Assembly (NCBI GenBank): GCA_012365435.1
Contig: GCA_012365435.1_4518.1
Length of the DNA: 64,000 nucleotides
Source: a phage
Strand: one strand, 5' to 3'
Below, piece by piece: positions 5,377-62,544 of this stretch (its first letter is position 1; the number at the start of each line of letters is the position of its first letter). Under the pieces are notes generated by a model that saw nothing but the letters and a program-made list of their open reading frames with translations, was not told where the DNA came from and did not search any database. Position numbers and translations under genes: made by a program.

Positions 5377-5649
5377 TTAGTTGTTAGAATACATCGCTAA
5401 ATGACGATAAATATTTTCAAAACCTTCATTGAATTCACTAATCAGTGTTTTCTTTTCTTCGGCAGTTAAATTTGTAATTAGTTTTCTAAAAGAATTCTGA
5501 TTTAGCTGCCGACCATCTTTTTTAATTCCAATCTCATTCAAGAATCCGATGAAACTTGCTCGGTCTTCAACAATATCTTCCCTAGAGAATTTAATCAAAA
5601 TAGAAGCAATAGTAATAATTTCACGTACGATTTCAATGTCTTTATTCAT
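5377..5649 (-). CDS. asiA: Anti-sigma70 factor AsiA
   Basis: 90 aa, near-identical to T4 AsiA (MNKxIxxVREIITxASILIKFSREDIVE...) as recalled. Confidence 0.85.
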   Translation of the reverse strand: MNKDIEIVREIITIASILIKFSREDIVEDRASFIGFLNEIGIKKDGRQLNQNSFRKLITNLTAEEKKTLISEFNEGFENIYRHLAMYSNN

Positions 5650-7510: not shown

Positions 7511-8143
7511 TCACAGTACGTTAGTTACAAGGGTAATGATTTCTTTAGACACATTAGGGAAGTCGATGTAAGTATATTTACCACCGATCTTAATCTTAAC
7601 ATCATTTTCAAGAGAAGTAAACAGCTTTGATTCAGTTTCTGACATGTTGTATGCAAAGATTCTAAGAGAACCATCTCGACGAATTTCAATTTGGCGAATG
7701 CCTAGAACTCGTTTAGCGAATCGAACTTCTAAGTTACTACGGTTTTCACCAATTTCTTTAACTTCAACTTTATCTTTAATATTTTCAAAAACAAAGTTTG
7801 CTAATTCATGCATTTCAGGAGTAACTCCACGTGCTTTTCTGGTGTTACGTTTCTGAAGAAGTTCTGGAGCATTTTCTTGAGCAAATAGGTCTGCAGCTTT
7901 TTGGATAATATCCATTGCTTCGCCTGTTGCTACAAGTCCATCACCGGATTTTTCGACTAAACCTTTCTTAATCAATACACCAATGTTAGAGTTAACAACC
8001 GATGCATTGTATTCTGCTTCCAGAGCTTCACGGACATTGGCAGCAGTGGTGAAGTTGTTCTTAATGATATAAACCATTATTGCAGCAGTTTTTTCATTCA
8101 GAGCGTTTTCAGAAGCTTTGATGATGTAAGTAACTTTAGACAT
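7511..8143 (-). CDS. motA: Middle-transcription activator MotA
   Basis: From MSKVTYIIKAS (ATG at 8141-8143) 210 aa, matches T4 MotA N-terminus and length; track ORF extends upstream from a probable non-ATG codon. Confidence 0.8.
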   Translation of the reverse strand: MSKVTYIIKASENALNEKTAAIMVYIIKNNFTTAANVREALEAEYNASVVNSNIGVLIKKGLVEKSGDGLVATGEAMDIIQKAADLFAQENAPELLQKRNTRKARGVTPEMHELANFVFENIKDKVEVKEIGENRSNLEVRFAKRVLGIRQIEIRRDGSLRIFAYNMSETESKLFTSLENDVKIKIGGKYTYIDFPNVSKEIITLVTNVL

Positions 8144-15604: not shown

Positions 15605-16705
15605 TTACGCTGTGAAGATTTTATCCCACATCGCAACAACTGCATCTCGATTATACTTCTTCCATACTGCTTCAGCACGTTTAACTCGAGCTTCGTATGT
15701 GTCAGTGAATTCTAATACAGCTTTTGTGTAAAGCGCAACTACTTCTTTCTTAGGAGTAGAGGAATCAATTTCTACACGCACAGTATCTGGGTCGTATTCG
15801 AATGTAGCATGAGGATAATCCTTAAAAACTAACTGGATTACAGGGACACCTTTAGAGATGGCTTCAATAGAACTATTCTCTACCGTGCCTGTGTCAGGAC
15901 ACGTATTAATAAGTGCTTTAGCTGTTTTAAGACGTTCCATGATTTCACTGTGTGGAGCATCAATAATAACAGGATATTTAGCTGGTGGTGCCCATTTGCT
16001 TGGACAATAACCAATACCATTTTCGCCTAGTGCTTTAATTGCTTCAAGAGCAACATCAGTGCGACGCATCTTAGTGTCATAACGTTGAGCACTAATAATC
16101 AAATCAGTTGCCGGGAGAACTTCTGGCTTTTCAGACAAACAAATAACCGGGTAGTCATCAGGTTCAAATAATGGATTTTCACGCCAGTAGTCATAATCAA
16201 TTTTGTCAGTAAGAGCTGAAGTCATATGACAATATTTACGTTCAAATTCACGGAATGCTTTAGTAGGAGCATAGCTCTTCCCACCGTTCTTGTGAATCTG
16301 GATAGTCTGATCCCAAATTTGAACAATACCACGAGACACCGGTTCAAACGGCGTAGCCATAAAATTCTTATGAACTTTAGAGAGTCCAGCATCTTTAATT
16401 GCTTGGACAGTTAGTTTAGTCGGTTCCATAGTAACAACAAAATCGTATTCATGGATGCCGGCTAGTTCAACAATCTTACGAGCCATAGTATAACTCATAC
16501 CTAGACTGAATTTAGTCAGATGACCAACAGGATGATGATTAACCTTCCAATCACCAAATGTGTCATTATCAAAACCGATATAATCAATATCGGCACCGAT
16601 AGAAACTAAATATTTCAACACATTTAAATGTACTGCTTCAAGACCACCTTGTACACGTTCTGGGTTAAATGGGACCGCACGAGATGGGATAAACATAACT
16701 TTCAT
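15605..16705 (-). CDS. Putative glycosyltransferase (GT-B-like), candidate DNA hmC sugar transferase
   Basis: 366 aa; GT-like C-terminal block (GVPVIQLV...); occupies the slot where T4 has gene 60/mobA; no alpha-gt/beta-gt elsewhere in window. Confidence 0.55.
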   Translation of the reverse strand: MKVMFIPSRAVPFNPERVQGGLEAVHLNVLKYLVSIGADIDYIGFDNDTFGDWKVNHHPVGHLTKFSLGMSYTMARKIVELAGIHEYDFVVTMEPTKLTVQAIKDAGLSKVHKNFMATPFEPVSRGIVQIWDQTIQIHKNGGKSYAPTKAFREFERKYCHMTSALTDKIDYDYWRENPLFEPDDYPVICLSEKPEVLPATDLIISAQRYDTKMRRTDVALEAIKALGENGIGYCPSKWAPPAKYPVIIDAPHSEIMERLKTAKALINTCPDTGTVENSSIEAISKGVPVIQLVFKDYPHATFEYDPDTVRVEIDSSTPKKEVVALYTKAVLEFTDTYEARVKRAEAVWKKYNRDAVVAMWDKIFTA

Positions 16706-28547: not shown

Positions 28548-28710
28548 TTGCAACCCAATCAACCATATGTAGATGGTCTGATAATTGACTAACATGCTGA
28601 AGCTGATTAGACAGGAGTTTACAAATAAGCTCACTGTTATCATTTTTAAATAGTTGGTCAATACGTTTCTTATGAGCTTTCTTAAGCTGACGTTTATTTA
28701 AACGAGCCAT
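28537..28710 (-). CDS. Small basic hypothetical protein (57 aa)
   Basis: Not in ORF track; ATG overlaps gene 56 stop (TAATG). Confidence 0.35.
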   Translation of the reverse strand: MARLNKRQLKKAHKKRIDQLFKNDNSELICKLLSNQLQHVSQLSDHLHMVDWVANET

Positions 28711-29231
28711 TAATAACCTCGGTCTTGACGAGCAAAGTTTTCAGCATTCTTCAGATAATACAGTTTAAAGATTTCTTCAGCCGAAAGACCTATACCTTGG
28801 AACATATTCAGAACGAAATGGAGAATATCAATCATTTCAAACTTAATTTCCAGTTGGTCTTCAGGAGTCAGTTCATCGATACGACGATTTCGATATTCAG
28901 CATGTTGTGCTTTCCAAGGTTTCCATACAGCAGATGCATCTTTTTCACCATTGCTCATACCACCAAGTGAAGTCAGCAGTTCACGGAATTCATCATCAAT
29001 ATAATCTTTCTGATTACGCAGCCAATCAACAACATCACCGGCAGTAGCCAATTCATCAGGATGTTTGTTATGTTCAGGCTTGTCATTAGCCAGACGAACC
29101 TGTAAAGATTTCTGCATATCAAGCATTACCTGCAGTGGGTCTTTATCTTCGTGAATCAGAGCATTAAAATAAGCTTCTTCTGCTTTATCAACACCAGAAA
29201 TAAGTTGTGAACATTCATTAAAGTGCGCCAT
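28710..29231 (-). CDS. 56: dCTP pyrophosphatase gp56 (MazG-like)
   Basis: Matches T4 gp56 as recalled; start set to ATG (MAHFNEC) with AAGGA RBS; track start upstream is TTG. Confidence 0.75.
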   Translation of the reverse strand: MAHFNECSQLISGVDKAEEAYFNALIHEDKDPLQVMLDMQKSLQVRLANDKPEHNKHPDELATAGDVVDWLRNQKDYIDDEFRELLTSLGGMSNGEKDASAVWKPWKAQHAEYRNRRIDELTPEDQLEIKFEMIDILHFVLNMFQGIGLSAEEIFKLYYLKNAENFARQDRGY

Positions 29232-37260: not shown

Positions 37261-37809
37261 TTAACGAGCCCATTTAATGATTTCTGTAATCAAATAATTA
37301 CGTTCGCTTGCATTAAATCCTATAACTTTGTTAGCACCATCATGATTAAGTAATTGATACGTTTGGATTTTGTTATGAATTGCAAACTCTTCAAAATATG
37401 AAATGACTGTATTAAAACCGAATGAAGACAAAGTAATAAGGTCGTCTTCAAAACTTTCAGTCATTTCGTTACGTGTTAAAATAATTGTGAACACATCATG
37501 GTTTTGGCAAAGACGAACATAATCCTGTTCATAAACATCAAGAACCGAGTCCGCATCTTGTCGAATACGTCCATAAACCCAGTTACTAATATATCCACGG
37601 TCTAACAGATAAATCTTAGTAGGGTCTAAATAATTCAACATCGTTTCGAAACAACCAACTTCATTTCGAGACTTAACATCGAAACGTCCATCAACTGTTC
37701 GTTTAGGGAAATCAATCTTTACATATCTTTCACTAATTTCCATTATGTCATTAATGAAAGTTGTTTTACCGGCATTATCCGGGCCATCTACTAAAATAAT
37801 TTTAGCCAT
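37261..37809 (-). CDS. P-loop kinase, thymidylate/cytidylate kinase-like
   Basis: 182 aa; Walker A VDGPDNAGKTT; LLDRGY resembles DRY lid motif of NMP kinases; sits in the T4 beta-gt slot. Confidence 0.55.
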   Translation of the reverse strand: MAKIILVDGPDNAGKTTFINDIMEISERYVKIDFPKRTVDGRFDVKSRNEVGCFETMLNYLDPTKIYLLDRGYISNWVYGRIRQDADSVLDVYEQDYVRLCQNHDVFTIILTRNEMTESFEDDLITLSSFGFNTVISYFEEFAIHNKIQTYQLLNHDGANKVIGFNASERNYLITEIIKWAR

Positions 37810-37810: not shown

Positions 37811-38710
37811 TTATTCCTCGATTACGACATCTTCGTATTTAGGTATATTATACGGCGAAGAAATTAAAGCGTTAAAGTAGATGAACTCACCAAGACCTGG
37901 ATGGAATACTTCTTCAGGATTTTCGAAATATTGAATCTTCGGACGTCCTTTAAGAATTTGATAGTACTCAGTTTTAGTTGGTTTAAAAATTCGAATCAGC
38001 GCTTCTTCAGGATACTTATTTCTGTCAAAGCTATTATTTGGATCGGTTATATAAAGCGGTTGACCTAATTGAATTGCGCATTCAACCACTTGTTCAAAAC
38101 GATAACACGGGTCACTAATTCGAAATGGATGAAAAATACCATCTAGATGAATAGGAGCCAAATCACCTACAAGACGCTGCATGACGGAAGGACGTATAAC
38201 TTTCTGCGTTACGATAATCTTATTACCATCGGCACCTGCGTTAACCAGCACTTCCTTTTGACGTTCATTCAACACAGTAGTTTGAAGTGAACGATTAACA
38301 GACAACATGTCGGTTTTTAAGAATTCATCAATATAAAAACGTGGTTTATTAGGGTCTGCAGTGATATTGAAATTGAATTCTACGTCAAAAGCGCCATCAT
38401 ATCCAGTGATATCTGTGATTAGAAAATCACAATCATAATAAGCAATTAATGAATCAACCACAAATTCATTTTCAGACCAGAAATATTTACGAGTGTTATA
38501 CGCGTTATCTTTATACCATAATGGAACAAACTTAAATTCCGGGAAAAGACGTTCACATTCTTTAATATCAGATGCATTACGTGGATATGTAATCACATCA
38601 CCTGGATTAGCACGGTGCAAATGAAGTTGGAAGTTGCCATCCTTAAGGATAGCATACTGTCCAGTTTCATAAGACCGCATACTCAAGATTGGTACGCGGA
38701 AAATAGCCAT
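37811..38710 (-). CDS. Hypothetical protein (299 aa) in the T4 beta-gt slot
   Basis: ORF track; no recognisable similarity to T4 beta-glucosyltransferase. Confidence 0.5.
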   Translation of the reverse strand: MAIFRVPILSMRSYETGQYAILKDGNFQLHLHRANPGDVITYPRNASDIKECERLFPEFKFVPLWYKDNAYNTRKYFWSENEFVVDSLIAYYDCDFLITDITGYDGAFDVEFNFNITADPNKPRFYIDEFLKTDMLSVNRSLQTTVLNERQKEVLVNAGADGNKIIVTQKVIRPSVMQRLVGDLAPIHLDGIFHPFRISDPCYRFEQVVECAIQLGQPLYITDPNNSFDRNKYPEEALIRIFKPTKTEYYQILKGRPKIQYFENPEEVFHPGLGEFIYFNALISSPYNIPKYEDVVIEE

Positions 38711-39426
38711 TAGTCAAGGAATCCTTTAACATAATCAAAATCACGTTCAAACACATGGGCACTTACCATGGTATGAGTATAATCACCAACTTCTACGCCG
38801 CATTCGTTAGCGATATAATGAAGTAATTTTCCTTGGAGATAAAAATCCAACTGCATAACAACAGCACAGTTCTGAGAACGCATATGACAGTGGGTATAAA
38901 GCTTACCATCGCGAATATAATAAGTCACTGAGTCAGTACATGGATATTCAAGTGTTTCGTCCGAATCAAGCAAAGCCTGATCAGAACTTTCTAGAATTTG
39001 GAACACAACTCTTCGAGAGTTAGGTTTCTCTTTAAGTTCTTTTAGAAGAGCTGGTAATTGGGCCGCAATGCGAGGACCATAGAAAGTGTTGAAGTTCGCC
39101 GGCAAAGCGTCTGATTTAGGTTTAGAAATAAATTTAGCGACATTAGGATATGCCTTAAACGCTTCTTCTGCATCAGTACCACCAGAAATCATAAACTTCC
39201 AGAAGTCTTCGGCATATTCATAAGAGATGCGGTTAATACGTGGGTCGGTCATTTTGAATGATGATGGATTGTCAACAACTACTGTCATGGACCTGATTTC
39301 ATTACAACGTCCAATACGAGAATCAGTTACGAATTCAGGATTTTCTAAAATTTCACGATTGACTGCTTTAAATGCGGCTTGAAAATCTGCGGCTTTGATA
39401 TATTTCATTGTGTTATGTTTTCCCAT
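38710..39426 (-). CDS. 42: dCMP hydroxymethylase gp42 (thymidylate-synthase fold)
   Basis: 238 aa; block YPCTDSVTYYIRDGKLY...MRSQNCAVVMQLDF parallels FMCTNTVQYLIRDKK...MRSNDVVFGF of T4 gp42 as recalled; GAGGT RBS. Confidence 0.65.
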   Translation of the reverse strand: MGKHNTMKYIKAADFQAAFKAVNREILENPEFVTDSRIGRCNEIRSMTVVVDNPSSFKMTDPRINRISYEYAEDFWKFMISGGTDAEEAFKAYPNVAKFISKPKSDALPANFNTFYGPRIAAQLPALLKELKEKPNSRRVVFQILESSDQALLDSDETLEYPCTDSVTYYIRDGKLYTHCHMRSQNCAVVMQLDFYLQGKLLHYIANECGVEVGDYTHTMVSAHVFERDFDYVKGFLD

Positions 39427-39468: not shown

Positions 39469-39708
39469 TTATTTGAATTTCTTGGCAATGTTGATATAAC
39501 GTAAAGCTTCAGAATCTATACTTCCAAGAACACTATGAAGGAATGCATCAGTGTAGTATTCCAATTGAACAGGTTCTTTAATCACTTTAGCCGCTTTGGT
39601 TTCAAACAGGCCCATAAGGGCCTTTTTAAGAATTTGTTCGTTAGTGTTCAGTTTTATAGTCAAAATCTCTTCATTAAGTTGGTGGTTAAAAGTTTTTCTA
39701 GAAATCAT
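39469..39708 (-). CDS. Hypothetical protein (79 aa), not Imm-like
   Basis: ORF track; hydrophilic, unlike membrane protein Imm that occupies this slot in T4. Confidence 0.45.
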   Translation of the reverse strand: MISRKTFNHQLNEEILTIKLNTNEQILKKALMGLFETKAAKVIKEPVQLEYYTDAFLHSVLGSIDSEALRYINIAKKFK

Positions 39709-40865
39709 TCCGGGTACCTCAAAGCGTCATCAGAGTTAGTTATATCAATAATAGATATAGAGTTTTCTGATAACCCATTTTTAGATAACTGACGTTTATA
39801 ATATCTTTCACAATATGTACACGTCGTCCCGCAGATTTCATTAGCACAATCGAAATCTGGATGTCTGAACCACCTTTTTTCTAAAAAACCGTCTAACAAT
39901 GAGGTTTCAATATTTACTGTATGTGAAAACTCAGTCTCATTTTCAAGAGTGAAAATAGTCTCTAAAGGCTTCCACAGTTCTAACAAATTACCTTCAAACT
40001 TTTCAGAAGCGTATGCTTCAAGAACTTTCAAAATGTAGTCTGTGCTACCTGTACGTCCTGAAACTTTGAATTGAGTGATACCAATATCATTATAAAGTTT
40101 CAAATCTTGAGGACGAACAAAACGAGTTCTCAGCCAGTTAAATGGGTCTGTATCACGAGCTTTAATACAGTGCTGCATAGGATATCCATTTAAGGATTTA
40201 GCATCATCAGCGGTAACATCAGTACTATGGAAAATATAGCAAGAGTCACGATAGCTACAATGTGTTGTATACCCTTTACCAGCATTAGAACAGAACTCAT
40301 TTACAAGAACTTCAAATATTATATTGTTCTTATTGCAAAACTCTGCTGCACGCTTCAGGAAAGAAACTGAACGGTTCTTATGAATTCCGCAACAGACTTT
40401 TTTGATGTTATATTGGTCGTGCAAGTATTTGATTTGAGTTACAGCATCAACATGTAGAATTGTTGAAACTTCAATCTCAATGTCTTTATTGACTTCACGA
40501 ACAATTTCCATAACAACAGGGTTAGCGATAGTAATACGCCATACGCCTATTGACCAAAGATACTGAACATAATCCTGAATAGCTTTCTTCTTCCACTCAA
40601 CTAGTTCTCTTTTTGAACCAGGATTTATCGTGTTGAGTGTATAGTTAAAGCAAATACCTAATTCGTTACAACGTTTAACGTAGTCTTCTAACATCTTTTT
40701 GTCAACGTCAGGAAGCCTAAAATCAGGTCTGGCTGCTACAAAAGCCATTTCTCTTGTAGAGCCGTATACTTCGTTTATCAAGCTATTAGGATAAGTTTTA
40801 TTGAGCTCTACGATTTTATCAAGAAGAGCTAAATCAAAATTCGTTCCGATTTTAAAAGTATTCAT
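39705..40865 (-). CDS. U32-family-like Cys-rich enzyme (putative Fe-S dependent; function unknown)
   Basis: 386 aa; blocks NPVVMEIVRE and EIEVSTILHVDAV resemble DPGLIMLVRE / PIHLSVQANAV of U32 proteins; Cys clusters VCCG..FCS..HCS..SC and C-x4-C-x3-C-x2-C. Confidence 0.5.
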   Translation of the reverse strand: MNTFKIGTNFDLALLDKIVELNKTYPNSLINEVYGSTREMAFVAARPDFRLPDVDKKMLEDYVKRCNELGICFNYTLNTINPGSKRELVEWKKKAIQDYVQYLWSIGVWRITIANPVVMEIVREVNKDIEIEVSTILHVDAVTQIKYLHDQYNIKKVCCGIHKNRSVSFLKRAAEFCNKNNIIFEVLVNEFCSNAGKGYTTHCSYRDSCYIFHSTDVTADDAKSLNGYPMQHCIKARDTDPFNWLRTRFVRPQDLKLYNDIGITQFKVSGRTGSTDYILKVLEAYASEKFEGNLLELWKPLETIFTLENETEFSHTVNIETSLLDGFLEKRWFRHPDFDCANEICGTTCTYCERYYKRQLSKNGLSENSISIIDITNSDDALRYPE

Positions 40866-40921
40866 TTTTTTGCATCTCGCGTTAATTGATGCGATGGTTT
40901 TTGCAGGTCTTACTTAAATTA

Positions 40922-41323
40922 TTATAGATTCGGTTTATATGATTTAAATGTTTCGAATTCGCCTTTATTCATAAGAGCTTTGAATTCGTCAGGACGCATA
41001 GCTTTGTCGTCGATAATCCAATCATATACTGGTTTATGTGTTAGCAAATTATGGTACTTCAAGCCAATGTTTGCCAAGTTCTGAATCAGACTTGGGAGAA
41101 TGTCAATTGCTATACGACCAGGACCTACTGACTTCATACCACGAGCAGTGTAAAGCGTTATGGTATGCCCTGCATCATACAGGGCATTAATGGCAGACAC
41201 CATTTCGACGTCCGGTTTGAAGTTCACGTAATCACGATTGTTATTCCACTCTGTTATACAATCATCGACATCAAAACAAAGATTAAGCATGTTTTCTACA
41301 CGGTGCATTAGATTCGTTCCCAT
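40922..41323 (-). CDS. HAD-superfamily small phosphatase (KdsC-like)
   Basis: 133 aa; HAD motif I FDVDDCIT near N-terminus; coordinates from ORF track. Confidence 0.55.
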   Translation of the reverse strand: MGTNLMHRVENMLNLCFDVDDCITEWNNNRDYVNFKPDVEMVSAINALYDAGHTITLYTARGMKSVGPGRIAIDILPSLIQNLANIGLKYHNLLTHKPVYDWIIDDKAMRPDEFKALMNKGEFETFKSYKPNL

Positions 41324-42993
41324 TGATGAGTGATATCGCCACCGATTGGACGATAGGAAACACCAGTTTCTTTATCAGTTAGTACCCATTTACCAGGATT
41401 TTTTGTAATCAGAGTAGCCGTTACAGGTTCTGCTACGTCATAACTAATAGAGCCGTCTTGAAGTACACGGCCCATGTTACGTAATTGCTTAGTCAGAAGT
41501 TCCATACCTTTATAATATGCGGCTACCGCTTTAAGTGGATTATTCTTGAAATAACCACCTAATGCAATCCAGATAATTGCTACTGCCAAATGATGATACT
41601 CGTTAAACGAACTCATCTTTCCATATTTGTAAACTAATGGATTGATGTTAATAGTCACATTACAAGTTGTTTCATCAATAGTAAACTGTCCCCAGGTCGG
41701 ATTAGCATTGAATTCATCATAACCTGAAACAGCATAAAGCACTTTAGCTTCATCATATAATTTTGGCCCGTAAATCTTGGTTTCACCAAAATATCCACGA
41801 GGGTCGATAAACTTGACTTCGCCGTTATCAGTAATCATAGTATTACTGAAGTTCGGGTCACCGTGAATAACAGAGTACTGTCCCTGAGAACGATTATGAT
41901 AACGAATAAGGTGTTCTAAAGCTTGTTTCAGCATTGGCTTCAGACGTCCAATCTTAGTGTAGTTCACGTGTGTGATTTTACCAAATGAATCAATCAATGG
42001 CTGAATGCTTTCACAACGATCAATAACTTTCGTATAGAATTCTTTAGTGAAATCACGACGAACAGTTTCAGGACTTACAAAATAAGTGTCTGTGCTGAAT
42101 TTCAGTGCATCTAAAATTGCATCAACAATTTGTGGACGAGCAAGACTTGATTTGGATTTAATATATTCAAATGCTGGCTTACCTTTAATACGTTCCATTT
42201 CAAAATTATTTTCATTTACCGAAACTAACTGAGGAACTGAATCTGATTTCACTTTCAAATACCATGAAATCTCATCTTTTTGAAGAGCTCGACCTTGTTC
42301 GGTTAACGCGAATTTAGTTACAGTTTCTTCGCCAATTTCAACTGCATTAAAACTACGATTAAGTTCACGAACTTCATGGGCCTTTTCAAGTTTAGGCATA
42401 TCACCTAAATCAATTAGATTCATAAGCTCTGATTTATTGAATGCACTGCCGTAAAGGAATTCTACGAAATCACGTCCTTTGCAGTATTCATGAATTTCCT
42501 CATCAGTAGAACCCATGTAGAATTCCCAGTCTTTGAACTGATAAATTCCTACAACATTACCGCCTGTTGAACCTACGTTAGTGATATTTTCACCATCGAA
42601 ATTATATCGACATTCATCACCCTTAACATAGATTGCGTTAACATTCCAAGACCATGAACCAAAATCAGGAATAATATCACACCAGTTAACAATTACGTTA
42701 TGGCCATCTAAATCTTTGTATAATTTAGCAAGAGCATAAGCAGAACCATACGCTTCATCAACTGTACGAATAGTCACATTGAACCCTTCTTGCTCGCAAT
42801 AAGCTCGAACAGTTTCAGCAAATTTTGAATGAACTACTACAATAATTTCATCTGCGCCAAGGTCAGAATAAATTGTATACAAATTGCTCAGAATAGTGTC
42901 TTGTTTATAGTTAACAAGAACTTTTGGAATATGATGCGTTATTGGATACAAACGAGTTGCCAGTCCAGCACCAAGAATAACAGCTTTTTTCAT
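41308..42993 (-). CDS. Bifunctional sugar-1-phosphate nucleotidyltransferase / APH-like sugar kinase
   Basis: 561 aa; N-terminal MKKAVILGAGLATRLYPIT (RmlA/MurU-type NTase); C-terminal VIHGDPNFSNTMI and FIDPRG (APH/choline-kinase-type catalytic motifs). Confidence 0.7.
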   Translation of the reverse strand: MKKAVILGAGLATRLYPITHHIPKVLVNYKQDTILSNLYTIYSDLGADEIIVVVHSKFAETVRAYCEQEGFNVTIRTVDEAYGSAYALAKLYKDLDGHNVIVNWCDIIPDFGSWSWNVNAIYVKGDECRYNFDGENITNVGSTGGNVVGIYQFKDWEFYMGSTDEEIHEYCKGRDFVEFLYGSAFNKSELMNLIDLGDMPKLEKAHEVRELNRSFNAVEIGEETVTKFALTEQGRALQKDEISWYLKVKSDSVPQLVSVNENNFEMERIKGKPAFEYIKSKSSLARPQIVDAILDALKFSTDTYFVSPETVRRDFTKEFYTKVIDRCESIQPLIDSFGKITHVNYTKIGRLKPMLKQALEHLIRYHNRSQGQYSVIHGDPNFSNTMITDNGEVKFIDPRGYFGETKIYGPKLYDEAKVLYAVSGYDEFNANPTWGQFTIDETTCNVTININPLVYKYGKMSSFNEYHHLAVAIIWIALGGYFKNNPLKAVAAYYKGMELLTKQLRNMGRVLQDGSISYDVAEPVTATLITKNPGKWVLTDKETGVSYRPIGGDITHQWERI

Positions 42994-43174
42994 GTTGTGG
43001 TCCTCATTGGTAAGTAGGTGTATTGTACACTATTCTAGTTAAAGCATTCATACTTTGCTTGTAGTCCAATCATAATCCATCCAATTACAAGTGTTGGAAT
43101 CATTACTGGAGCCGTTAAGCTCCAGTAGATAGTCATGACAAGCATCAATAGTAAAAGTCCTATTGTTATTGCTT

Positions 43175-43810
43175 TCATTGTTCGCCTCGTAACATGGCAC
43201 CTAGTGCACCGCCTGGGTGGAACTTAAGGAAGTCATTAGAGGTAAATCCACGTTCAGACGAAAGGTTGATAGCGAACGTATCGATAAGCGCTAACAACAA
43301 TGTAGTGGACATGGTCGGAGCCAGAGAATTCTCATCAACCTCTACCGCGATGCCTGTACAGAAAGAGTAATCAAAAAGGGCTTCATTTTCTTGCGGAATG
43401 TCCGGGTTACAATGCAACAGAATCTGTTTGACATTTGGACGAATCATTTTAAGATGCTTAGCCACGCCTATCATTTCTTCAGTTTTACCAGAACGACTAA
43501 TATGAATCAACACATCATTAGGCGCAATGAATCCTGCATCACCGTGAGAATAATGCCCGGTGTTCAAGTACATACTTGGGATACCGAGTGAAGCAAATGT
43601 CTCAGAAGCTTTAGTTGCAATATTAGCATTCTTACCAACACCTGTAATAATTACTCGGCTTTCATAATTACTAAGTCCAGGGCGTCGAAGAGTTTCTAGA
43701 ATAGCATTATAACGAGCAGGGTTTTGACTAATTACTTTGGCCATAGCGGCCAAAGAAGAAGCTTGTTTTATAATTGCGTCAATAGCGATAGTAATAGGAG
43801 TAGTTTTCAT
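43175..43810 (-). CDS. SIS-domain sugar-phosphate isomerase, KdsD/GutQ-like (putative D-arabinose-5-phosphate isomerase)
   Basis: 211 aa; ITGVGKNANIA...ISRSGKTEE...LAPTMSTT...FHPGGALG mirrors the KdsD SIS domain motifs as recalled; no CBS domains. Confidence 0.7.
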   Translation of the reverse strand: MKTTPITIAIDAIIKQASSLAAMAKVISQNPARYNAILETLRRPGLSNYESRVIITGVGKNANIATKASETFASLGIPSMYLNTGHYSHGDAGFIAPNDVLIHISRSGKTEEMIGVAKHLKMIRPNVKQILLHCNPDIPQENEALFDYSFCTGIAVEVDENSLAPTMSTTLLLALIDTFAINLSSERGFTSNDFLKFHPGGALGAMLRGEQ

Positions 43811-51951: not shown

Positions 51952-52186
51952 CCTCGATACATGCTTCAGCCATTTTAAGAATAGAGCCAGGAGTATCGTT
52001 GTCCATTATATTAAAGCTAAATTCAATAGCCCAGTCGGTACAGACATGAACGGCTTTAACTTCATTGCCTTCAACGCGTAATGGCTCAATCCAATACTTG
52101 ATGGTGTCCTCGAATCCATCATCATCTTTAACGTCTATTTCAACTTCAAGCCCGAGCCCAGCATTGTTAAATTCATCTAAAGTCAT
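51929..52186 (-). CDS. Hypothetical acidic protein 46.2-position (85 aa)
   Basis: ORF track. Confidence 0.5.
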   Translation of the reverse strand: MTLDEFNNAGLGLEVEIDVKDDDGFEDTIKYWIEPLRVEGNEVKAVHVCTDWAIEFSFNIMDNDTPGSILKMAEACIEDAYNDED

Positions 52187-53202
52187 TGTGTTGCCTCAAT
52201 ATAAAGTTCGTTGGAATATTTGACCAGCGCTTCTCTGTCTTCGTCTGAGATATCTGGAATCGCGTCAATATATTCTTTAATGATATCTTGAAGTGATTTA
52301 ATCTCGATTTCCTGGTCATCATCAGATTCAACACTGTTATCAACTTTAGAAACCATACGAAGAGAGTGAACTACTTTTTCAAGTTCAGATTCAAATTTAG
52401 TCAACTCTGAATCAATTTCTGATACTATAACACGTATGGCTAGATTAGTATAATCAGAATAATTGATTTTGCCTTTAAACGGATAAGTGATTCGTCGATG
52501 CCATGTTGTTTCATTAGGAATAAATTCCATACGTTCAACATCAGTGTCAAATACCCAGAATCCGCGAGGGTCGTTCTCATCACCTGCAGTAAGGGTCCAC
52601 GGTGTCCCAATATATTTGACGTTAGCAGCTTCAGAGATTGTGTGGAAGTGGCCGGACCAGACTTGTTTATAGGTCTTTAAGAAATCAGGTTCAAGCCCAT
52701 GGGACTTCATTCCTTTATAGAAATAAAAGCCGTTCAGTTCCCAGTGACCAACACAATACGCGGCAGAAGAAGTCTTGATGTGCTCTAAGATTTCACCTGT
52801 ATTTTCTTCACACATCCATGGAACGATATCAATCAGACATCCGTCAAAATCTACAGTAGTTGGATGTTCGTAAATAGTAAAGTTTTCAAATTGAGTTAAC
52901 AATTCAGAAACAGTGTTAGGTGTTATTGTATTCTTAAACGCCATGTCATGGTTTCCTATCGTGACATGAACGTGAATGCCTGCTTTAGAAATCATATCAA
53001 CGATTTCACGATTGAATTCCATTGTACGATGTGTAATTGCTTTACGGACGTCAAACCAATCACCGTACTGAATCCAAGTTTTAATCCCGTGTTTCTTAGA
53101 GTATTCAATTGCTTGACGAATACCATCACGTTGAATATCTTGGACCCATGGGTCGTCTTGTTTGACTCCGATATGGAAGTCGCCTAAGTGCAAAATTTTC
53201 AT
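52183..53202 (-). CDS. 47: Recombination nuclease subunit gp47 (SbcD/Mre11-like phosphoesterase)
   Basis: 339 aa; calcineurin-like motifs GDFH, GDWFD, GNHD, GHFH. Confidence 0.85.
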   Translation of the reverse strand: MKILHLGDFHIGVKQDDPWVQDIQRDGIRQAIEYSKKHGIKTWIQYGDWFDVRKAITHRTMEFNREIVDMISKAGIHVHVTIGNHDMAFKNTITPNTVSELLTQFENFTIYEHPTTVDFDGCLIDIVPWMCEENTGEILEHIKTSSAAYCVGHWELNGFYFYKGMKSHGLEPDFLKTYKQVWSGHFHTISEAANVKYIGTPWTLTAGDENDPRGFWVFDTDVERMEFIPNETTWHRRITYPFKGKINYSDYTNLAIRVIVSEIDSELTKFESELEKVVHSLRMVSKVDNSVESDDDQEIEIKSLQDIIKEYIDAIPDISDEDREALVKYSNELYIEATQ

Positions 53203-53224
53203 ATTATTTCCTCATTAGTTAATT

Positions 53225-53251
53225 CATTCTATCATCCGTTTATAAAGCAAA
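53225..53251 (-). promoter_or_regulatory. MotA-dependent middle promoter for gene 47
   Basis: - strand TTGCTTTAT (MotA box), 12 nt, TAGAAT; near-identical to gene 39 middle promoter core GGATGATAGAAT. Confidence 0.5.
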
Positions 53252-53273
53252 AAAGGAACTCCGAAGAGTTCCT
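53244..53273 (-). terminator. Rho-independent terminator, C(UUCG)G hairpin plus U-run
   Basis: aggaactc-cgaa-gagttcct, UUCG in - transcript, followed by UUUUUUGCUUUAU. Confidence 0.55.
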
Positions 53274-53445
53274 ATCCACATAGTACGCCGTACAGAGGCT
53301 CATTTGAACTTTTAAATCGAATGGGCTTGTACGTAATAGTTCCTTCGGCTTTAGCTTTATCATAAGACTCTTTAAAACGTCTCATTCTTTCTGCTTTGCC
53401 TTTACGGATTTTATCGAAATTTTCAGAAGTCGGGATGTTCGTCAT
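53272..53445 (-). CDS. Small hypothetical protein (57 aa)
   Basis: Not in ORF track; ATG with GAGGTG RBS; terminator hairpin at its 3' end. Confidence 0.4.
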   Translation of the reverse strand: MTNIPTSENFDKIRKGKAERMRRFKESYDKAKAEGTITYKPIRFKSSNEPLYGVLCG

Positions 53446-53484
53446 GCATAAGCACCTCTCAGAAAATGCCTAAATCGATTTCTC

Positions 53485-53706
53485 TCATCGTTTCCACCAT
53501 TTCTTAACTTGAAATGAATCAACCCACACGAGTTGTTTTGGGTCTGCCTTTACAATAGGCGGACAAATTTCTGTAATAGAACCGTCGTGATATTCCTTTT
53601 CAGAAATTTTAACACAAAGAGGACCTCCCAATTTAAGGGAGAACCCTGCGTTCAGCTTCAGACGTTTAAACTTTGTTTGAACTAGCGCCATTAATGATGT
53701 CCTCAA
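53485..53706 (-). CDS. Hypothetical protein (73 aa, start uncertain)
   Basis: ORF track. Confidence 0.35.
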   Translation of the reverse strand: MRTSLMALVQTKFKRLKLNAGFSLKLGGPLCVKISEKEYHDGSITEICPPIVKADPKQLVWVDSFQVKKWWKR

Positions 53707-53989
53707 TAGCCTGACGAGTAGTAATCCACTGGATTTTAATTAACTTGTCATTATATGGTTGTCGTAGAATATCCCGAGATTTCTTAATAGCATATTCGTA
53801 AGCTTCGAAGTTGTTTTGAATTGCTGCTTCTTGAGCATGTGCATAAAGACGGTTTAGTTCAAAACGATTCTTTTTAAGAATCTTTTCGGATTTTTTACGT
53901 GCTTCAGCTTCATTTTTCTTTTGGATTTCTTGTAGCATTTTAGCTACTGCATCTTCTGCTTCTTTATTTTCAATAATCTCGGTAGTCAT
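53666..53989 (-). CDS. Hypothetical protein (107 aa)
   Basis: ORF track. Confidence 0.45.
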   Translation of the reverse strand: MTTEIIENKEAEDAVAKMLQEIQKKNEAEARKKSEKILKKNRFELNRLYAHAQEAAIQNNFEAYEYAIKKSRDILRQPYNDKLIKIQWITTRQAIEDIINGASSNKV

Positions 53990-53990
53990 A

Positions 53991-54203
53991 TTATCTCATT
54001 AAATTAAAATAAAAACGTCCATCCTCTTCAATACAGAACTCGTACTCAACTGGAGTCCCATTTATTGAAAATGACACGTCATGTGGGTTCAAAGGGTCGA
54101 TGTCAAAATTAATTTTAAATTCACGACCCAACAGTTTTACCAAATAAGGGATTGCTTCGTCAAAAGGTTCTTCTAAGTAGTTAGAGATGTCAATTGTCAT
54201 CCT
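53991..54203 (-). CDS. Hypothetical protein (about 70 aa)
   Basis: ORF track with start moved to internal ATG to avoid overlap with gene 55. Confidence 0.4.
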
Positions 54204-54747
54204 CATATAAAAAATCCAAACTAGGCGAATCGCTAACAACTTCCTTCTTTTCAGCCCCAGGAGCTTTATAAGCGGATTCTTCATAATGCGTCATTTTATC
54301 GTAGATGTCTTGAATAAACGTTTCATCTACCAACGCTACCATATCATCGTCATGACTGTCGTAGACATTATGAACGAAGTAACTATATTTCTTTGCAACT
54401 TCCTTACGTTCTTTTTTGATACGTTGGACAAAAGCATTAAAACAAGCTCGAGTTATGTATGCATGTGGGTTATTGTACTTAGTTTCGTCGAAATTATGAA
54501 GTCCCTTAATAGAGGCTTCAATCCCATCTGCAATCATCTCCTGCTTCCAAGACTGGGTATATCCTGAAAAGTTGAAACGTTTGGACAGGCCTTCGGCGAT
54601 AAGCATAATTGCTAAACCGATGGTATCATTCTGACGAATAATTTTGTTTGGGTCTTTATTATTTAGGAGCTCCTTTTTCCACTCGATTATAGCGGCGAGA
54701 AGCTCTTTATTATTCACATAGTTATTTTTAGGTTTTTGTTCAGTCAT
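54190..54747 (-). CDS. 55: Late sigma factor gp55
   Basis: From [17 protein letters not shown] 185 aa; long identity with T4 gp55 ([43 protein letters not shown]). Confidence 0.85.
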
Positions 54748-54819
54748 AAGTACCTCTTGGCTCAATTCATAGGTCTATTATATCATAATATTTAGAGACC
54801 TATCTTAAAGCACGAGATA

Positions 54820-55089
54820 CTATCGGAGCAAACAATACGCCTGGAATACTTTTTCCATTAAACGTTTGAACTCATGTATATCAATATAAAGCTCGGTTAA
54901 TCCAGCTCCATAAAGAAAATCTAAAAAGTTCTCATGTGTTTCGTTATAGTCGCCTTCGTTTAATTGAGATACATGAGTTTCCCAAAAACCGACACCTTTA
55001 ACAAATGGAAAATACGTAACTTTCATAAAGTTGTCGACGTAAAATTCGCCCAGCTTTTCTTCAGTTATACTGATTCGAGTTAATTTCAT
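54820..55089 (-). CDS. Hypothetical protein (89 aa)
   Basis: ORF track. Confidence 0.45.
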   Translation of the reverse strand: MKLTRISITEEKLGEFYVDNFMKVTYFPFVKGVGFWETHVSQLNEGDYNETHENFLDFLYGAGLTELYIDIHEFKRLMEKVFQAYCLLR

Positions 55090-58175: not shown

Positions 58176-58646
58176 TTAATCATGTTTCCACACCCCATCG
58201 GTATTTGACCAAAGTCGCTGATTATCTGATCCTCGCCACAACTTTTTGGTCGGAAGATTTTTCTCATACTTCCCATCAATAATAACATCAACATATTTAA
58301 GCATTTCTAGCTGTTTAATATCTTCAAACTTATATCCTGTCCACAACCAAATGCTTTTATTGGGATAAAGATTTTTAATAGTTTGAACTACAGAGTGAAT
58401 AACATCTCGGTTATCAGGATAGAGAGGGTCTCCTCCGGTTATAGTTAATCCTTCTATATAATCATTATTCAAACATTCAATTAATTGTTCTAGTGTCTCT
58501 CCAGTGAATGGAGCACCATTTCTAGCGTTCCATGTTGATTTATTATAACACCCTTCACATTTATGCAAACAACCTGTAACGAAAAGAACGACCCTGCAAC
58601 CAGGGCCATTAACAAAATCGCAAGGATAAAATCTATCATAATTCAT
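58176..58646 (-). CDS. nrdG: Anaerobic ribonucleotide reductase activating protein NrdG (radical SAM)
   Basis: 156 aa as T4 NrdG; CxxxCxxC cluster CLHKCEGC. Confidence 0.85.
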   Translation of the reverse strand: MNYDRFYPCDFVNGPGCRVVLFVTGCLHKCEGCYNKSTWNARNGAPFTGETLEQLIECLNNDYIEGLTITGGDPLYPDNRDVIHSVVQTIKNLYPNKSIWLWTGYKFEDIKQLEMLKYVDVIIDGKYEKNLPTKKLWRGSDNQRLWSNTDGVWKHD

Positions 58647-60460
58647 TGGTGTTTAACCCTATGCATGATTTCTTTATTTTTACCGAGATTAAATCCGCGT
58701 TCGTTCGGATTTCCCAAATAACCGCATGTCCTTCTTATAGTGTTCATCTTTTTAGGATCAGTTTCTCCACAAACTGAACAAACAAATCCGTTTTCAGTAG
58801 GAGTCATTTCATGAGTACTTCCGCATGTAAAACATTTATCTACTGGCATATTAACACCAAAATAATCTAAATGTTGTGCAGCATAATCCCACACGGCCTC
58901 AAGACCTTTTAGGTTATTTTTCATATCAGGAAGTTCAACATAAGAAATGTGACCACCTGTCGCAATGAAATGATATGGCGCTTCACGAGAAATCTTTTCA
59001 AACGGAGTAATATTTTCTTCTACTGAAACGTGGAAACTATTAGTGTACCAGCCTTTATCGGTAACATCTTTTACGCTTCCATATTTTTCTGTATCAAGTT
59101 TACAGAAACGATAACACAAGTTTTCAGCAGGAGTAGAATATAAACTAAAAGCAAATCCAGTTCTTTCGGTCCACTGTTTAAGATGAGCATTCATTTTAGT
59201 TAAAATTTCTTGCCCAATATCACGACCGACAAGAATATTCAATTCGTGAATACCAATGTATCCCAAAGACACTGAACTTCTACCGTTTTTAAATAACTCA
59301 ATTATATCGTCGTCAGGTTTAAGACGAACCCCAAATGCACCTTCTTGGTAAAGAATAGGAGCAACAGTCGCTTTAACTCCTTTTAAGGAACTAATTCTAC
59401 ACATCAAGGCTTCAAAACACAGATCCATTCGTTCATTAAATAGCTCAACAAATTTCTGTTCATTGAACTGTGTTCCAATATAAGAATCTAATGCGATACG
59501 AGGAAGATTCAGTGTTACAACACCAAGATTATTACGTCCATCAAGAATTTCATTACCAGTCGAATCTTTCCATACGCTCAAGAAACTACGGCAGCCCATT
59601 GGAGAAACCGGAACTGAAGAACCAGTAATAGCTTTATTATTCTTAACCGAAATAATGTCAGGATACATTCTTTTGCTTGCACATTCTAACGCAAGTTGTT
59701 TAATATCATAGTTTGGATCATCTTTATAAAGATTAACACCTTCTTCAACAAACATAACAAGTTTAGGAAAAATAGGAGTTATCCCATCACGACCGAGACC
59801 TTTAATCCGATTTTTCAGAATTGCCTTCTGAATCATTCGTTCAGTCCAATCGGTTCCCGTACCAAATGTAATTGTTACAAAAGGCGTTTGTCCGTTTGAA
59901 CTAAAGAGAGTATTTACTTCATATTCATAAGCTTGGAATGCATCGTATACGTCTTTTTCTGTTTTAGATTGAGCATAATTCAACGCATCAGCGATTTGCC
60001 ATTTTTCTGCATCTTCAACATGTTTAGCGTATGTACGTTTAACATAAGGAGAAAGAACTTTATCGACATTTGCAAATGTAGTTCCGCCATACTGATGTGA
60101 AGCAACTTGTGCAGTAATTTGTGCCATAATTGCAGTAGCAACACCAATCGATTTAGGCGTTTCAATTTGAGCATTGCCTAATTTAAATCCGTTCTCAAGC
60201 ATCCCCTTTAAATCGACTAAACAACAATTAGTAAACGGAAGAGCAGGAGAATAATCAATATCATGCATGTGGATAATTCCACTTTCATGCGCATTCATAA
60301 TAAAAGACGGGACCATATTTCTGGCAATGTGCTTAGACACAATACCAGCCATAAGGTCCCGTTGAGTTGGAAAAACACGAGAATCTTTATTAGCATTCTC
60401 GTTCAAAAGATCTTTATTAGTTTTATAAATTAATCCTTCAATTTCTTTTTCAATTTTCAT
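58643..60460 (-). CDS. nrdD: Anaerobic ribonucleoside-triphosphate reductase NrdD (uninterrupted)
   Basis: 605 aa; C-terminal glycyl-radical motif RTCGYLG and zinc ribbon CFTCGS...CSVCG; no intron. Confidence 0.9.
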   Translation of the reverse strand: MKIEKEIEGLIYKTNKDLLNENANKDSRVFPTQRDLMAGIVSKHIARNMVPSFIMNAHESGIIHMHDIDYSPALPFTNCCLVDLKGMLENGFKLGNAQIETPKSIGVATAIMAQITAQVASHQYGGTTFANVDKVLSPYVKRTYAKHVEDAEKWQIADALNYAQSKTEKDVYDAFQAYEYEVNTLFSSNGQTPFVTITFGTGTDWTERMIQKAILKNRIKGLGRDGITPIFPKLVMFVEEGVNLYKDDPNYDIKQLALECASKRMYPDIISVKNNKAITGSSVPVSPMGCRSFLSVWKDSTGNEILDGRNNLGVVTLNLPRIALDSYIGTQFNEQKFVELFNERMDLCFEALMCRISSLKGVKATVAPILYQEGAFGVRLKPDDDIIELFKNGRSSVSLGYIGIHELNILVGRDIGQEILTKMNAHLKQWTERTGFAFSLYSTPAENLCYRFCKLDTEKYGSVKDVTDKGWYTNSFHVSVEENITPFEKISREAPYHFIATGGHISYVELPDMKNNLKGLEAVWDYAAQHLDYFGVNMPVDKCFTCGSTHEMTPTENGFVCSVCGETDPKKMNTIRRTCGYLGNPNERGFNLGKNKEIMHRVKHQ

Positions 60461-62229: not shown

Positions 62230-62247
62230 TTAAAATTTTCTCGCAGG

Positions 62248-62544
62248 TTATTGTTCTACCCATGAACAAGAGACTTCAAAATCAGGACCACCGTATTCCC
62301 AGTGATATTCACCAACAGGAATCCAGTCACCGTGCTCGTTTTCTTCATAGTCCTCAGGCTCAAGGCCAACGAATCGCCATTGGACACCGATGATTCGATT
62401 ACCCATCATTACTCGAAATTCGCCCCATGGGTTATCGATAGCATACTGAATATCGTTCTTGGCACGAGAGCACATTTCTTGATATAATAAAGCTTCTAAT
62501 TCACCCTGGTCATAAGGGCCAGGGAAAGTTAAATCAATACTCAT
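62248..62544 (-). CDS. Hypothetical acidic protein (98 aa)
   Basis: ORF track. Confidence 0.5.
   Translation of the reverse strand: MSIDLTFPGPYDQGELEALLYQEMCSRAKNDIQYAIDNPWGEFRVMMGNRIIGVQWRFVGLEPEDYEENEHGDWIPVGEYHWEYGGPDFEVSCSWVEQ

Follow-up and report, generated by a model that had tools for sequence, protein, structure and literature searches.

The window analysed here, a 64-kb stretch of a phage genome of ~168 kb, is placed by its sequence in an RB69-type T-even phage of the genus Mosigvirus. With high confidence, the best explanation of its gene content is that this phage encodes no α-glucosyltransferase (a-gt) because it does not glucosylate hmC, and that the published arabinosyl-5-hydroxycytosine (arabinosyl-5hoC) pathway of RB69/HY126 replaces hmC glucosylation. 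Nucleotide identity to RB69 is 96.6% over 49.6 kb of the window, and for positions 52100-54900 the best database records are Mosigvirus p000v and LF82 phages (99.2% identical). What is said throughout about enzyme activities and DNA chemistry goes back to published work on near-identical proteins, while gene content, orthology, absences and motif conservation come from the present analysis.

The gap between the start codon of gene 47 and the stop codon of gene 55 spans exactly 53203-54189 (987 bp). The slot and its boundaries contain the following genes:

52183..53202, minus strand: gene 47, SbcD-like recombination nuclease subunit (339 aa), the downstream slot boundary; 75.5% identical to T4 gp47 and 99.7% to RB69 gp47 (PHROG 100, E 4e-135)
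53272..53445, minus strand: a-gt.2 orthologue, DUF5486 (57 aa); 75.9% identical to T4 a-gt.2 and 94.7% to RB69 (Pfam PF17588, E 4.5e-28)
53485..53691, minus strand: a-gt.3 orthologue (68 aa, or 73 aa counted from an upstream TTG); 69% identical to T4 a-gt.3 and 98.5% to RB69 (PHROG 1648, E 1e-33)
53666..53989, minus strand: a-gt.4 orthologue, DUF2654 (107 aa); 58% identical to T4 a-gt.4 and 99% to RB69 (Pfam PF10849, E 1.6e-27)
53991..54206, minus strand: a-gt.5 orthologue, DUF5491 (69-71 aa); 47% identical to T4 a-gt.5 and 100% to RB69 (Pfam PF17595, E 5.8e-13)
54190..54747, minus strand: gene 55, late sigma factor (185 aa), the upstream slot boundary; ~90% identical to T4 gp55 (PHROG 234, E 4e-68)

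The longest ORF within the gap in any frame is 107 aa, and therefore an a-gt of ~400 aa cannot be encoded there. The a-gt.5 orthologue reaches 17 nt into the 3′ end of gene 55, so that this ORF extends slightly beyond the gap. Compared with T4, substitutions in the a-gt.2 orthologue are most frequent at the third codon position, and differences in the a-gt.3 orthologue are distributed 13/14/34 over the three codon positions. The annotations of RB69 and mar005P1 name the same four small genes a-gt.2 to a-gt.5, for whose functions the literature yielded only one comparative-genomics mention, from 2006. The a-gt.4 orthologue was also considered as the Mosigvirus Emp peptide, which is of similar size (109 aa), and rejected; Emp adjoins motA and corresponds to arn.4, at 7171-7500 of the window.

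The a-gt.2 stop and the start of gene 47 are 69 nt apart, a stretch filled only by a terminator, a promoter and a ribosome-binding site:

53273-53254 (53244..53273 with the T-run), minus strand: intrinsic terminator, AGGAACTC-TTCG-GAGTTCCT followed by TTTTTGCTTT
53226..53249, minus strand: MotA box and -10 element of a middle-promoter-like sequence, TGCTTTATAAACGGATGATAGAAT, directly upstream of gene 47

The terminator begins inside the a-gt.2 stop codon and has an 8-bp stem, a UUCG loop and the T-run TTTTTGCTTT; its sequence thus presents the GC-containing hairpin and following U-run, 3′ of a gene end, by which Rho-independent terminators are recognized. The hairpin is kept across genera with compensating stem sequences. 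Middle promoters are defined by (a/t)(a/t)TGCTT(t/c)A located 11-13 bp upstream of a sigma-70 -10 element TAnnnT, and the sequence found here conforms to this pattern with TGCTTTA, 11 nt and TAGAAT (extended box TTTGCTTTA at 53251-53226, minus strand). Where 3.65 matches to the MotA-box/-10 pattern would be expected, the window has 13, a count reached in none of 100 shuffles. RB69, dhaeg, IME281, CC31 and T4 all have a MotA-box promoter upstream of gene 47 or 47.1, and the conserved position of terminator and MotA box across five genera indicates more than a chance match. Terminator-like matches inside a-gt.3 (53642-53624 and 53535-53520 on the minus strand, 53542-53564 on the plus strand) were treated as chance, as they fall within coding sequence. 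The window also encodes both proteins associated with middle transcription:

7511..8143, minus strand: motA, the activator needed at MotA-box promoters; 99.5% identical to RB69 MotA
5377..5649, minus strand: asiA, co-activator of middle transcription; 97.8% identical to RB69 AsiA

Both elements are probably functional, and together they would form one composite regulatory module 3′ of a-gt.2 to a-gt.5. The terminator would end the transcription unit of gene 55 and the a-gt.x genes, and the MotA-dependent middle promoter and ribosome-binding site right after it would drive genes 47 and 46.

An a-gt gene is expected to resemble T4/T2 a-gt (~400 aa) and to lie upstream of 47/47.1 and downstream of a-gt.2; the window has neither such a sequence nor a gene at that site. 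Searches with tblastn using T4 a-gt, T4 b-gt and RB14 ba-gt gave a best E of 0.3 in the window (0.33 with T4 and RB14 a-gt), and neither T4 b-gt nor RB14 ba-gt found anything below E 0.4 in the window or in complete RB69. Of the ~2.2 kb that carry 47.1, a-gt and mobB in T4, neither a protein nor a DNA remnant was detected in the window. The usual place of b-gt or ba-gt, from uvsX to gene 42, is likewise occupied by other genes in the uvsX-43 interval. The first-pass annotation had described the 47-55 interval as holding four ORFs of about 57 to 107 aa, a MotA-box promoter and a terminator but no a-gt, and had reported both T4 glucosyltransferases absent from their usual slots. The ORF list, the searches, the missing remnant and the same layout in RB69 bear this out: the four ORFs, all on the minus strand, are the orthologues of a-gt.2, a-gt.3, a-gt.4 and a-gt.5, and the two regulatory elements are recovered by pattern matching and cross-genus conservation. 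Published analyses of RB69 also report it to be without a-gt, b-gt and ba-gt (PMC6024577, PMC13326640).

Two thirds of the genome lie beyond the window, where an a-gt homologue could have moved and where it could still glucosylate the DNA. The first-pass annotation had proposed tblastn of a-gt and b-gt against the full genome; this was carried out on the window and, for the remainder, on the complete RB69 genome (NC_004928) as a proxy, on which the statement that no a-gt lies outside the window depends. Nothing significant was found in complete RB69 with T4 a-gt, RB14 a-gt, T4 b-gt or RB14 ba-gt. The best match, of T4 a-gt to RB69 nrdC.10 (E 0.013 over 85 aa), does not reach significance given the number of queries, and RB14 a-gt matches there with E 1.6. 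Furthermore, T4 has its own nrdC.10 in addition to a-gt, which rules out nrdC.10 as a replacement. The Mosigvirus names from the database matches are absent among the 60 listed of 657 phage records of a-gt homologues, and the published analyses concur on the absence. A relocated a-gt is thus extremely improbable.

Equally little probability attaches to the gap being an assembly artefact or a private deletion of this isolate, for which no support was found. The gene order of the 47-55 region is collinear in 147 database records at 90-99% identity as well as in RB69, the slot lacks a-gt at the genus level in Dhakavirus, Karamvirus (CC31) and Krischvirus, and the genes meet cleanly at a conserved terminator-promoter module. 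The same distribution limits what the slot can say about DNA chemistry. Taken alone, the empty slot is weak evidence for a different decoration, since Dhakavirus, CC31 and Krischvirus are also without a-gt, and yet CC31 carries b-gt and ba-gt homologues (PMC6024577).

The arabinosyl-5hoC reading draws on the genes found elsewhere in the window. The RB69 gp45-gp55 cluster occupies the slot of T4 b-gt and gene 42, and all components of the arabinose/5hoC gene set are present at 92-100% identity to RB69:

37261..37809, minus strand: thymidylate-kinase-like nucleotide kinase, RB69 gp45 homologue (98.4% identical; PHROG 761)
37811..38710, minus strand: putative first arabinosyltransferase, RB69 gp46:47 homologue (98-100% identical), where T4 has b-gt
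38710..39426, minus strand: 5-hydroxy-dCMP synthase, a thymidylate-synthase homologue (98.7% identical to RB69 gp48), which replaces T4 gene 42
39705..40865, minus strand: U32-family protein located within the cluster, RB69 gp50 homologue (99.5% identical; Pfam PF01136, E 7e-11)
40922..41308, minus strand: HAD-like sugar phosphatase, RB69 gp51 homologue, AfhF-like (99.2% identical; NCBIfam capsule biosynthesis phosphatase, E 4e-13)
41308..42993, minus strand: bifunctional sugar-1-phosphate nucleotidyltransferase and kinase, RB69 gp52:53 homologue, AfhE-like (99.7-100% identical; Pfam NTP_transferase, plus weak kinase-family matches)
43175..43810, minus strand: arabinose-5-phosphate isomerase, RB69 gp55 homologue (100% identical; SIS domain, KpsF/GutQ, E 2e-32)
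15605..16705, minus strand: second glycosyltransferase, RB69 ORF003c/gp3 homologue (97.5% identical), between rIIA and gene 39
28710..29231, minus strand: gene 56 dCTPase, which clears dCTP from the nucleotide pool (97.1% identical to RB69 gp56)

The 299-aa protein (37811..38710) has no family match in Pfam, NCBIfam or PDB sequence searches, and a single-sequence AlphaFold2 model of it was unusable (mean pLDDT 36.8); the GT-B-like fold and transferase role of RB69 gp46:47 come from published structure predictions (PMC13326640, Table 1). The 366-aa protein (15605..16705) belongs to no Pfam or NCBIfam family and has PDB 9iqz, 'glycosyltransferase subfamily 4-like', as its sole match (E 1.6e-248). 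Arabinosyltransferase activity of the gp46:47 and gp3 types is itself a proposal in the literature (PMC13326640). By sequence, then, the features of the RB69/HY126 system are recognizable in the window as a synthase of the 5hodCMP type, genes for UDP-arabinose and two homologues of the putative arabinosyltransferases.

The nature of the modified base turns on the thymidylate-synthase homologue. RB69 gp48 has been shown experimentally to make 5-hydroxy-dCMP, in vivo 18O2 labelling shows that it yields 5-hydroxy-dC and not 5hmdC, and NMR places the sugar in an ether linkage directly at C5 (PMC13326640). In RB69 virion DNA, the place of cytosine is taken by mono- or di-arabinosyl-5-hydroxycytosine, with cytidines completely replaced by the arabosylated (arabinosylated) derivatives (PMC13326640). 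The window protein matches PDB 9iqc with E 2.8e-160 and 5 substitutions in 238 residues (~98% identical). In a manual register against E. coli ThyA, it bears the D169N signature (RSQN; RSND in T4) proposed for 5hodCMP synthases (PMC13326640), together with N177D and L143E.

It could instead be supposed that the phage still makes hmC and attaches a different sugar to it, giving arabinosyl-hmC. This is how the mass-spectrometry and HPAEC data on RB69 were read at first (Thomas et al. 2018, PMC6024577), and the thymidylate-synthase homologue keeps the catalytic Cys and cytosine-specifying Asp found in T4 gp42. However, no gp42 orthologue (high identity, D169 retained) was found in the window, where the sole relative is this protein with 25% identity to T4 gp42, and both the labelling and NMR results and the D169N signature speak for 5-hydroxycytosine. 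Arabinosyl-hmC is accordingly very unlikely, if somewhat less so than a relocated a-gt. Since the only candidate is a 5-hydroxy-dCMP synthase of the RB69 gp48 type and a gp42 orthologue is missing, the modified base is probably not hmC. As the first RB69 report had settled on arabinosyl-hmC, it is the later NMR and enzyme studies that carry the assignment of the base. The different decoration of hmC that the first-pass annotation anticipated therefore stands as to the sugar, with genes of a pentose (arabinose) pathway in the b-gt/gene 42 slot, but not as to the base, which is probably 5-hydroxycytosine.

Wholly unmodified cytosine, as in RB49-type phages, would also do without a-gt, and Krischvirus MIZ3 likewise has none in the slot. 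Against this, the window encodes the dCTPase, the homologue of a dCMP-modifying synthase, a nucleotide-sugar pathway and two glycosyltransferases at 97-100% identity to RB69, in which cytidines are reported to be completely arabinosylated (PMC13326640). The likelihood of unmodified cytosine is thus close to nil, and the DNA of the present phage is predicted to carry arabinosyl-5hoC. In the pathway proposed for it, gp56 would deplete dCTP, and the flavin/O2-dependent thymidylate-synthase homologue (38710-39426) would hydroxylate dCMP to 5-hydroxy-dCMP, which would be phosphorylated and then built into DNA. Ribulose-5-phosphate would be converted to UDP-arabinofuranose through the isomerase (43175-43810), the bifunctional kinase/uridylyltransferase (41308-42993) and the phosphatase (40922-41308), and the first and second arabinose would be added by the two GT-B-type transferases (37811-38710 and 15605-16705).

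How the slot came to be empty can be approached through the terminator-promoter module. The hairpin and MotA promoter occur on both sides of a-gt in T4, RB14, Roth79 and, in part, Cronus, while a single copy is present in the window, RB69, dhaeg, IME281 and CC31, which are without a-gt in the slot. The 5′ part of the single module in the window resembles the T4 upstream module (TGCTTTATAAA), and its 3′ part resembles the T4 downstream module (CGGA..TGATA.AATGA). As the module has two copies with a-gt and one without, and the copy in the window looks like a hybrid of those in T4, recombination between modules could delete or install a-gt without a scar. It is possible, though we would not rate it as probable, that a-gt is a mobile cassette bounded by two 'UUCG hairpin + MotA-box promoter' modules. 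Consistent with a cassette, a-gt is only 91.5% identical between T4 and RB14, against 98.8-100% for gp47 and gp55 on either side of it. Roth79 and Cronus, which are more distant, carry a-gt at the same site, with a divergence similar to that of flanking genes, of which two were compared. By sequence comparison, ancestral presence followed by loss of a-gt is plausible; the 'loss' named in the first-pass annotation is thus secure as an absence and plausible, rather than demonstrated, as a loss. The single versus double module pattern suggests cassette-like gain or loss of a-gt, and is a minor new detail.

As a discovery, the correct but ordinary absence of a-gt carries little weight. The lack of a-gt and b-gt and the arabinose decoration of RB69-type phages have been in print since 2018, and the elucidation of the arabinose pathway and of 5-hydroxycytosine as the true base followed in 2025-2026, with the 2026 work showing that the base is not hmC. 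The value lies in annotation. With the window confidently placed among the T-even phages of the arabinosyl-5hoC class, the phage is predicted to resist many restriction enzymes, and its sensitivity to glycosylase and type IV defences should be altered. The repeated terminator-promoter module also suggests, in a simple and testable way, how DNA-modification genes could be exchanged between T-even phages.

Among known phages, RB69 (NC_004928, RB69p066-p071) has the same gene order, spacing, terminator hairpin and MotA box in this region, with proteins 94.7-100% identical, and differs by a few substitutions such as a -10 element of TAAAAT versus TAGAAT in the window. T4 shares the flanking genes, the four small genes (47-76% amino acid identity) and the a-gt.5/55 and a-gt.3/a-gt.4 overlaps. 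Unlike the window, T4 has an extra 2.2 kb with 47.1, a-gt (1203 bp) and mobB between 47 and a-gt.2, as well as two copies of the module, one to either side of the a-gt/mobB block, instead of one. The gene content of the arabosyl-5-hydroxycytosine system of RB69/HY126/DLP3 (Afh; PMC13326640; Mahler et al. 2025, cited therein) does not differ from that of the window, which includes the 5hodCMP synthase, kinase, isomerase, phosphatase, bifunctional kinase/uridylyltransferase, two glycosyltransferases and dCTPase. In the GenBank record of RB69 the transferase and the bifunctional enzyme are each split, but in the window each is a single intact ORF. The module itself resembles the PeSL motifs of T4-type phages (PMC2839356, PMC4122927), in which a stem-loop terminator is fused to a promoter and repeated at the borders of variable cassettes. 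PeSLs have been described with early promoters, whereas the promoter here is of the MotA-box (middle) type. PeSL-mediated shuffling offers an analogue of the possible a-gt cassette, in which the promoters would be middle ones and the gene exchanged one for DNA modification.

The 987-bp gap between gene 47 and gene 55 coincides exactly with the interval given in the first-pass annotation (53203-54189), and no ORF within it exceeds 107 aa in any frame. Real genes of this region all lie on the minus strand, and its features are as follows.

52183-53202, minus: gene 47, flank of the interval
53249-53226, minus: MotA box and -10 element, matching TGCTTNA, 11-13 nt, TANNNT
53273-53254, minus: terminator (hairpin and T-run), from a terminator scan
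53272-53445, minus: a-gt.2 orthologue, 57 aa, 76% amino-acid identity to T4
53485-53691, minus: a-gt.3 orthologue, 68 aa, 69% amino-acid identity to T4
53666-53989, minus: a-gt.4 orthologue, 107 aa, 58% amino-acid identity to T4
53991-54206, minus: a-gt.5 orthologue, 71 aa, 47% amino-acid identity to T4
54190-54747, minus: gene 55, starting at the ATG that matches T4, flank of the interval

The four small ORFs match PHROGs 2140, 1648, 951 and 1169 and Pfam families DUF5486, DUF2654 and DUF5491, and other phage records call them a-gt.2 to a-gt.5 (a-gt being the alpha-glucosyltransferase gene). Their differences from T4 are most frequent at third codon positions (e.g., 13/14/34 for a-gt.3), which indicates real genes under constraint. 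As in T4, the a-gt.5 orthologue shares 17 nt with the 3' end of gene 55, and it thus extends slightly past the interval described in the first-pass annotation.

The corresponding slot of T4 spans 3152 bp and contains 47.1, a-gt (1203 bp), mobB, and a-gt.2 to a-gt.5, and that of the T2-type phage RB14 has a-gt and 47.1 but lacks mobB. Searches of the window for 47.1, a-gt, and mobB by tblastn and sensitive blastn found none of them, not even as a trace, which confirms the earlier description of four small ORFs without an alpha-gt. In the Dhakavirus IME281, which lacks a-gt, the promoter and gene 47 are separated by a 47.1 homologue that is missing from the annotation (MELLLGYVVLFMAFYTFTRACWIGFFSTPDGFISIILFCIAITVLGL; ~6083-6225 of the examined IME281 stretch), so 47.1 is independent of a-gt. 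At the equivalent position (53226-53218) the window has only a two-codon mini-ORF (ATGAATTAA) that overlaps the -10 element.

The minus-strand sequence of the 69 nt that separate the a-gt.2 stop from the gene 47 start is TAG-GAACTC-TTCG-GAGTTCC-TTTTT-TGCTTTA-TAAACGGATGA-TAGAAT-GAATTAACTAATGAGGAAATAAT-ATG. The window has 13 matches to the MotA box/-10 pattern where 3.65 are expected (0/100 shuffles reach 13), and it encodes both MotA and AsiA. The composite module also precedes gene 47 (or 47.1) in RB69, two Dhakaviruses, CC31, and T4, with stems that vary in sequence and keep their pairing. Given this excess and conservation, the terminator and MotA-box promoter noted previously are both present beyond chance; their regulatory function is predicted. 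A further copy, with UUCG hairpin, T-run, MotA box, and -10, lies upstream of gene 39 (18653-18607, minus). The gene 39 and gene 47 copies (18607-18653 and 53226-53273, both minus) have the 13-mer CGGATGATAGAAT in common, and the gene 39 copy is the best window match to the T4 a-gt/47.1 intergenic module (90% over 30 nt). The module resembles the PeSL elements of T4-type phages, which are composite promoter-terminator motifs, but has a predicted middle promoter instead (PMC2839356, PMC4122927).

In the a-gt carriers T4, RB14, and Roth79, the hairpin and MotA-box module flanks a-gt on both sides (the downstream copy of Cronus consists of the hairpin alone), whereas phages without a-gt have one copy. 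T4 and RB14 are 98.8-100% identical in gp47 and gp55 and just 91.5% in a-gt. Taken together with the gene 39 copy, this suggests that the repeated regulatory modules may allow a-gt to be swapped or removed as a cassette. At the same site, a-gt is present in Klebsiella phage Roth79 and Erwinia phage Cronus, both of which are farther from T4 than the window phage is (gp47, gp55). Their a-gt identity to T4 (66% and 57%, respectively) roughly parallels that of gp47 (70% and 66%), which favors an old a-gt that would have been lost later, as judged from two flanking genes. A "loss", as in the first-pass annotation, is plausible.

Beyond the slot, the search for glucosyltransferases covered the 64-kb window and, as a relative, the complete RB69 genome. 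The window and RB69 share 96.6% identity over 49.6 kb, and the RB69 GenBank record annotates the identical 47/a-gt.2-5/55 arrangement; 52100-54900 matches Mosigvirus p000v and the LF82 phages at 99.2% identity and is collinear in 147 records. The blastn alignment to RB69 is interrupted at 28359-28708 (near soc/56), 32988-33183 (near imm.1/61.4), and 62246-62529 (near nrdC), probably because the two Mosigviruses differ there by short indels or ORF replacements. When T4 a-gt, RB14 a-gt, T4 b-gt (beta), and RB14 ba-gt (beta-alpha) were used as queries, sensitive tblastn returned nothing significant in the whole RB69 genome, and two papers also report this absence (PMC6024577, PMC13326640). The best a-gt match, nrdC.10 (RB69 54571-54810; E 0.013, 28% identity, T4 a-gt residues 211-295), was rejected because T4 also has nrdC.10, and probably reflects chance or very remote fold similarity. 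With T4 a-gt as the tblastn query, a homologue was found in 657 of 50,697 phage records (Tequatroviruses, Klebsiella phages, Erwinia phage Cronus, and a few others), with no Mosigvirus name among the best 60 of the 657.

T4 has segA, b-gt, gene 42, imm, and imm.1 in the interval from uvsX to gene 43. In the window this interval (37261-43810) contains different genes, listed below together with one gene from elsewhere.

Within 37261-43810: thymidylate-kinase-like protein (domain evidence)
37811-38710: 299-aa protein, no family match, single intact ORF
Within 37261-43810: thymidylate-synthase homologue, 98.7% identical to RB69 gp48
39705-40865, minus: cysteine-rich U32-family protein, RB69 gp50 homologue, inside the modification cluster
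Within 37261-43810: HAD-type phosphatase (domain evidence)
41308-42993: nucleotidyltransferase-plus-kinase fusion, 561 aa, single intact ORF
Within 37261-43810: arabinose-5-phosphate isomerase (domain evidence)
15605-16705: 366-aa protein between rIIA and gene 39, 97.5% identical to RB69 ORF003c

All seven uvsX-43 proteins are 92-100% identical to RB69 gp45-gp55. The RB69 record splits gp46/gp47 and gp52/gp53, whereas the window equivalents (299 and 561 aa) are intact, which supports the published view of the splits as sequencing errors. The 366-aa protein is nearly identical to the solved structure 9iqz, "glycosyltransferase subfamily 4-like," and the putative transferase role of the 299-aa protein follows published structure predictions (a single-sequence model reached a pLDDT of only 36.8). 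The imm and imm.1 genes (32275-32520 and 32597-32944, minus) lie upstream of gene 41, beside sp, whereas T4 has them between 42 and 43; the rearrangement thus covers the whole uvsX-43 interval, not b-gt alone. U32 proteins include O2-independent hydroxylases such as RlhA (ho5C, rRNA), TrhP (ho5U, tRNA), and UbiU/V. Because the published 5hodCMP synthase, which makes 5-hydroxy-dCMP, needs O2 and the phage has the anaerobic reductase genes nrdD/nrdG (58176-60460), the U32-family protein could by analogy provide an anaerobic route to 5-hydroxycytosine. Separately, an arn.4 homologue (7171-7500, minus, 109 aa) adjoins motA; from its size and place it is probably the counterpart of Emp, Mosigvirus AV110 Gp94, a growth inhibitor targeting MreBCD (bioRxiv 10.64898/2026.09.14.751387).

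The thymidylate-synthase homologue is just 25% identical to the T4 dCMP hydroxymethylase gp42, of which the window has no orthologue, and matches PDB 9iqc (E 2.8e-160). It has RSQN against RSND of gp42, corresponding in alignments to the D169N signature proposed for 5hodCMP synthases (PMC13326640). RB69 gp48 converts dCMP to 5-hydroxy-dCMP with O2 and flavin, 5-hydroxycytosine in RB69 DNA bears mono- and di-arabinosyl groups through an ether link, and the other genes, the U32-family one aside, are given roles in making and transferring UDP-arabinofuranose (Lee et al., 2026, PMC13326640). The modified base of the window phage is thus very probably 5-hydroxycytosine, so that of the different hmC decoration proposed earlier the pentose stands and the hmC very probably does not.

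Both glucosyltransferases are indeed missing from their usual slots, as slot contents and tblastn of the window and RB69 agree. However, the 47-55 slot likewise holds only small ORFs in Dhakavirus (dhaeg, IME281), Karamvirus CC31, and Krischvirus MIZ3, and CC31 carries b-gt and ba-gt homologues (PMC6024577). The empty slot alone therefore lends little weight to a different chemistry, for which the uvsX-43 interval is decisive. A glucosyltransferase homologue elsewhere does exist in a trivial sense, since Thomas et al. (PMC6024577) reported from HHpred a very distant GT-B relationship between ORF003c and a-gt, but the published RB69 DNA chemistry is arabinosyl, not glucosyl. Ultimately, absence of a-gt and b-gt with arabinose decoration is a correct and ordinary result, an RB69-type property already published as genome annotation (2003), chemistry (2018), and pathway and base identity (2025-2026).
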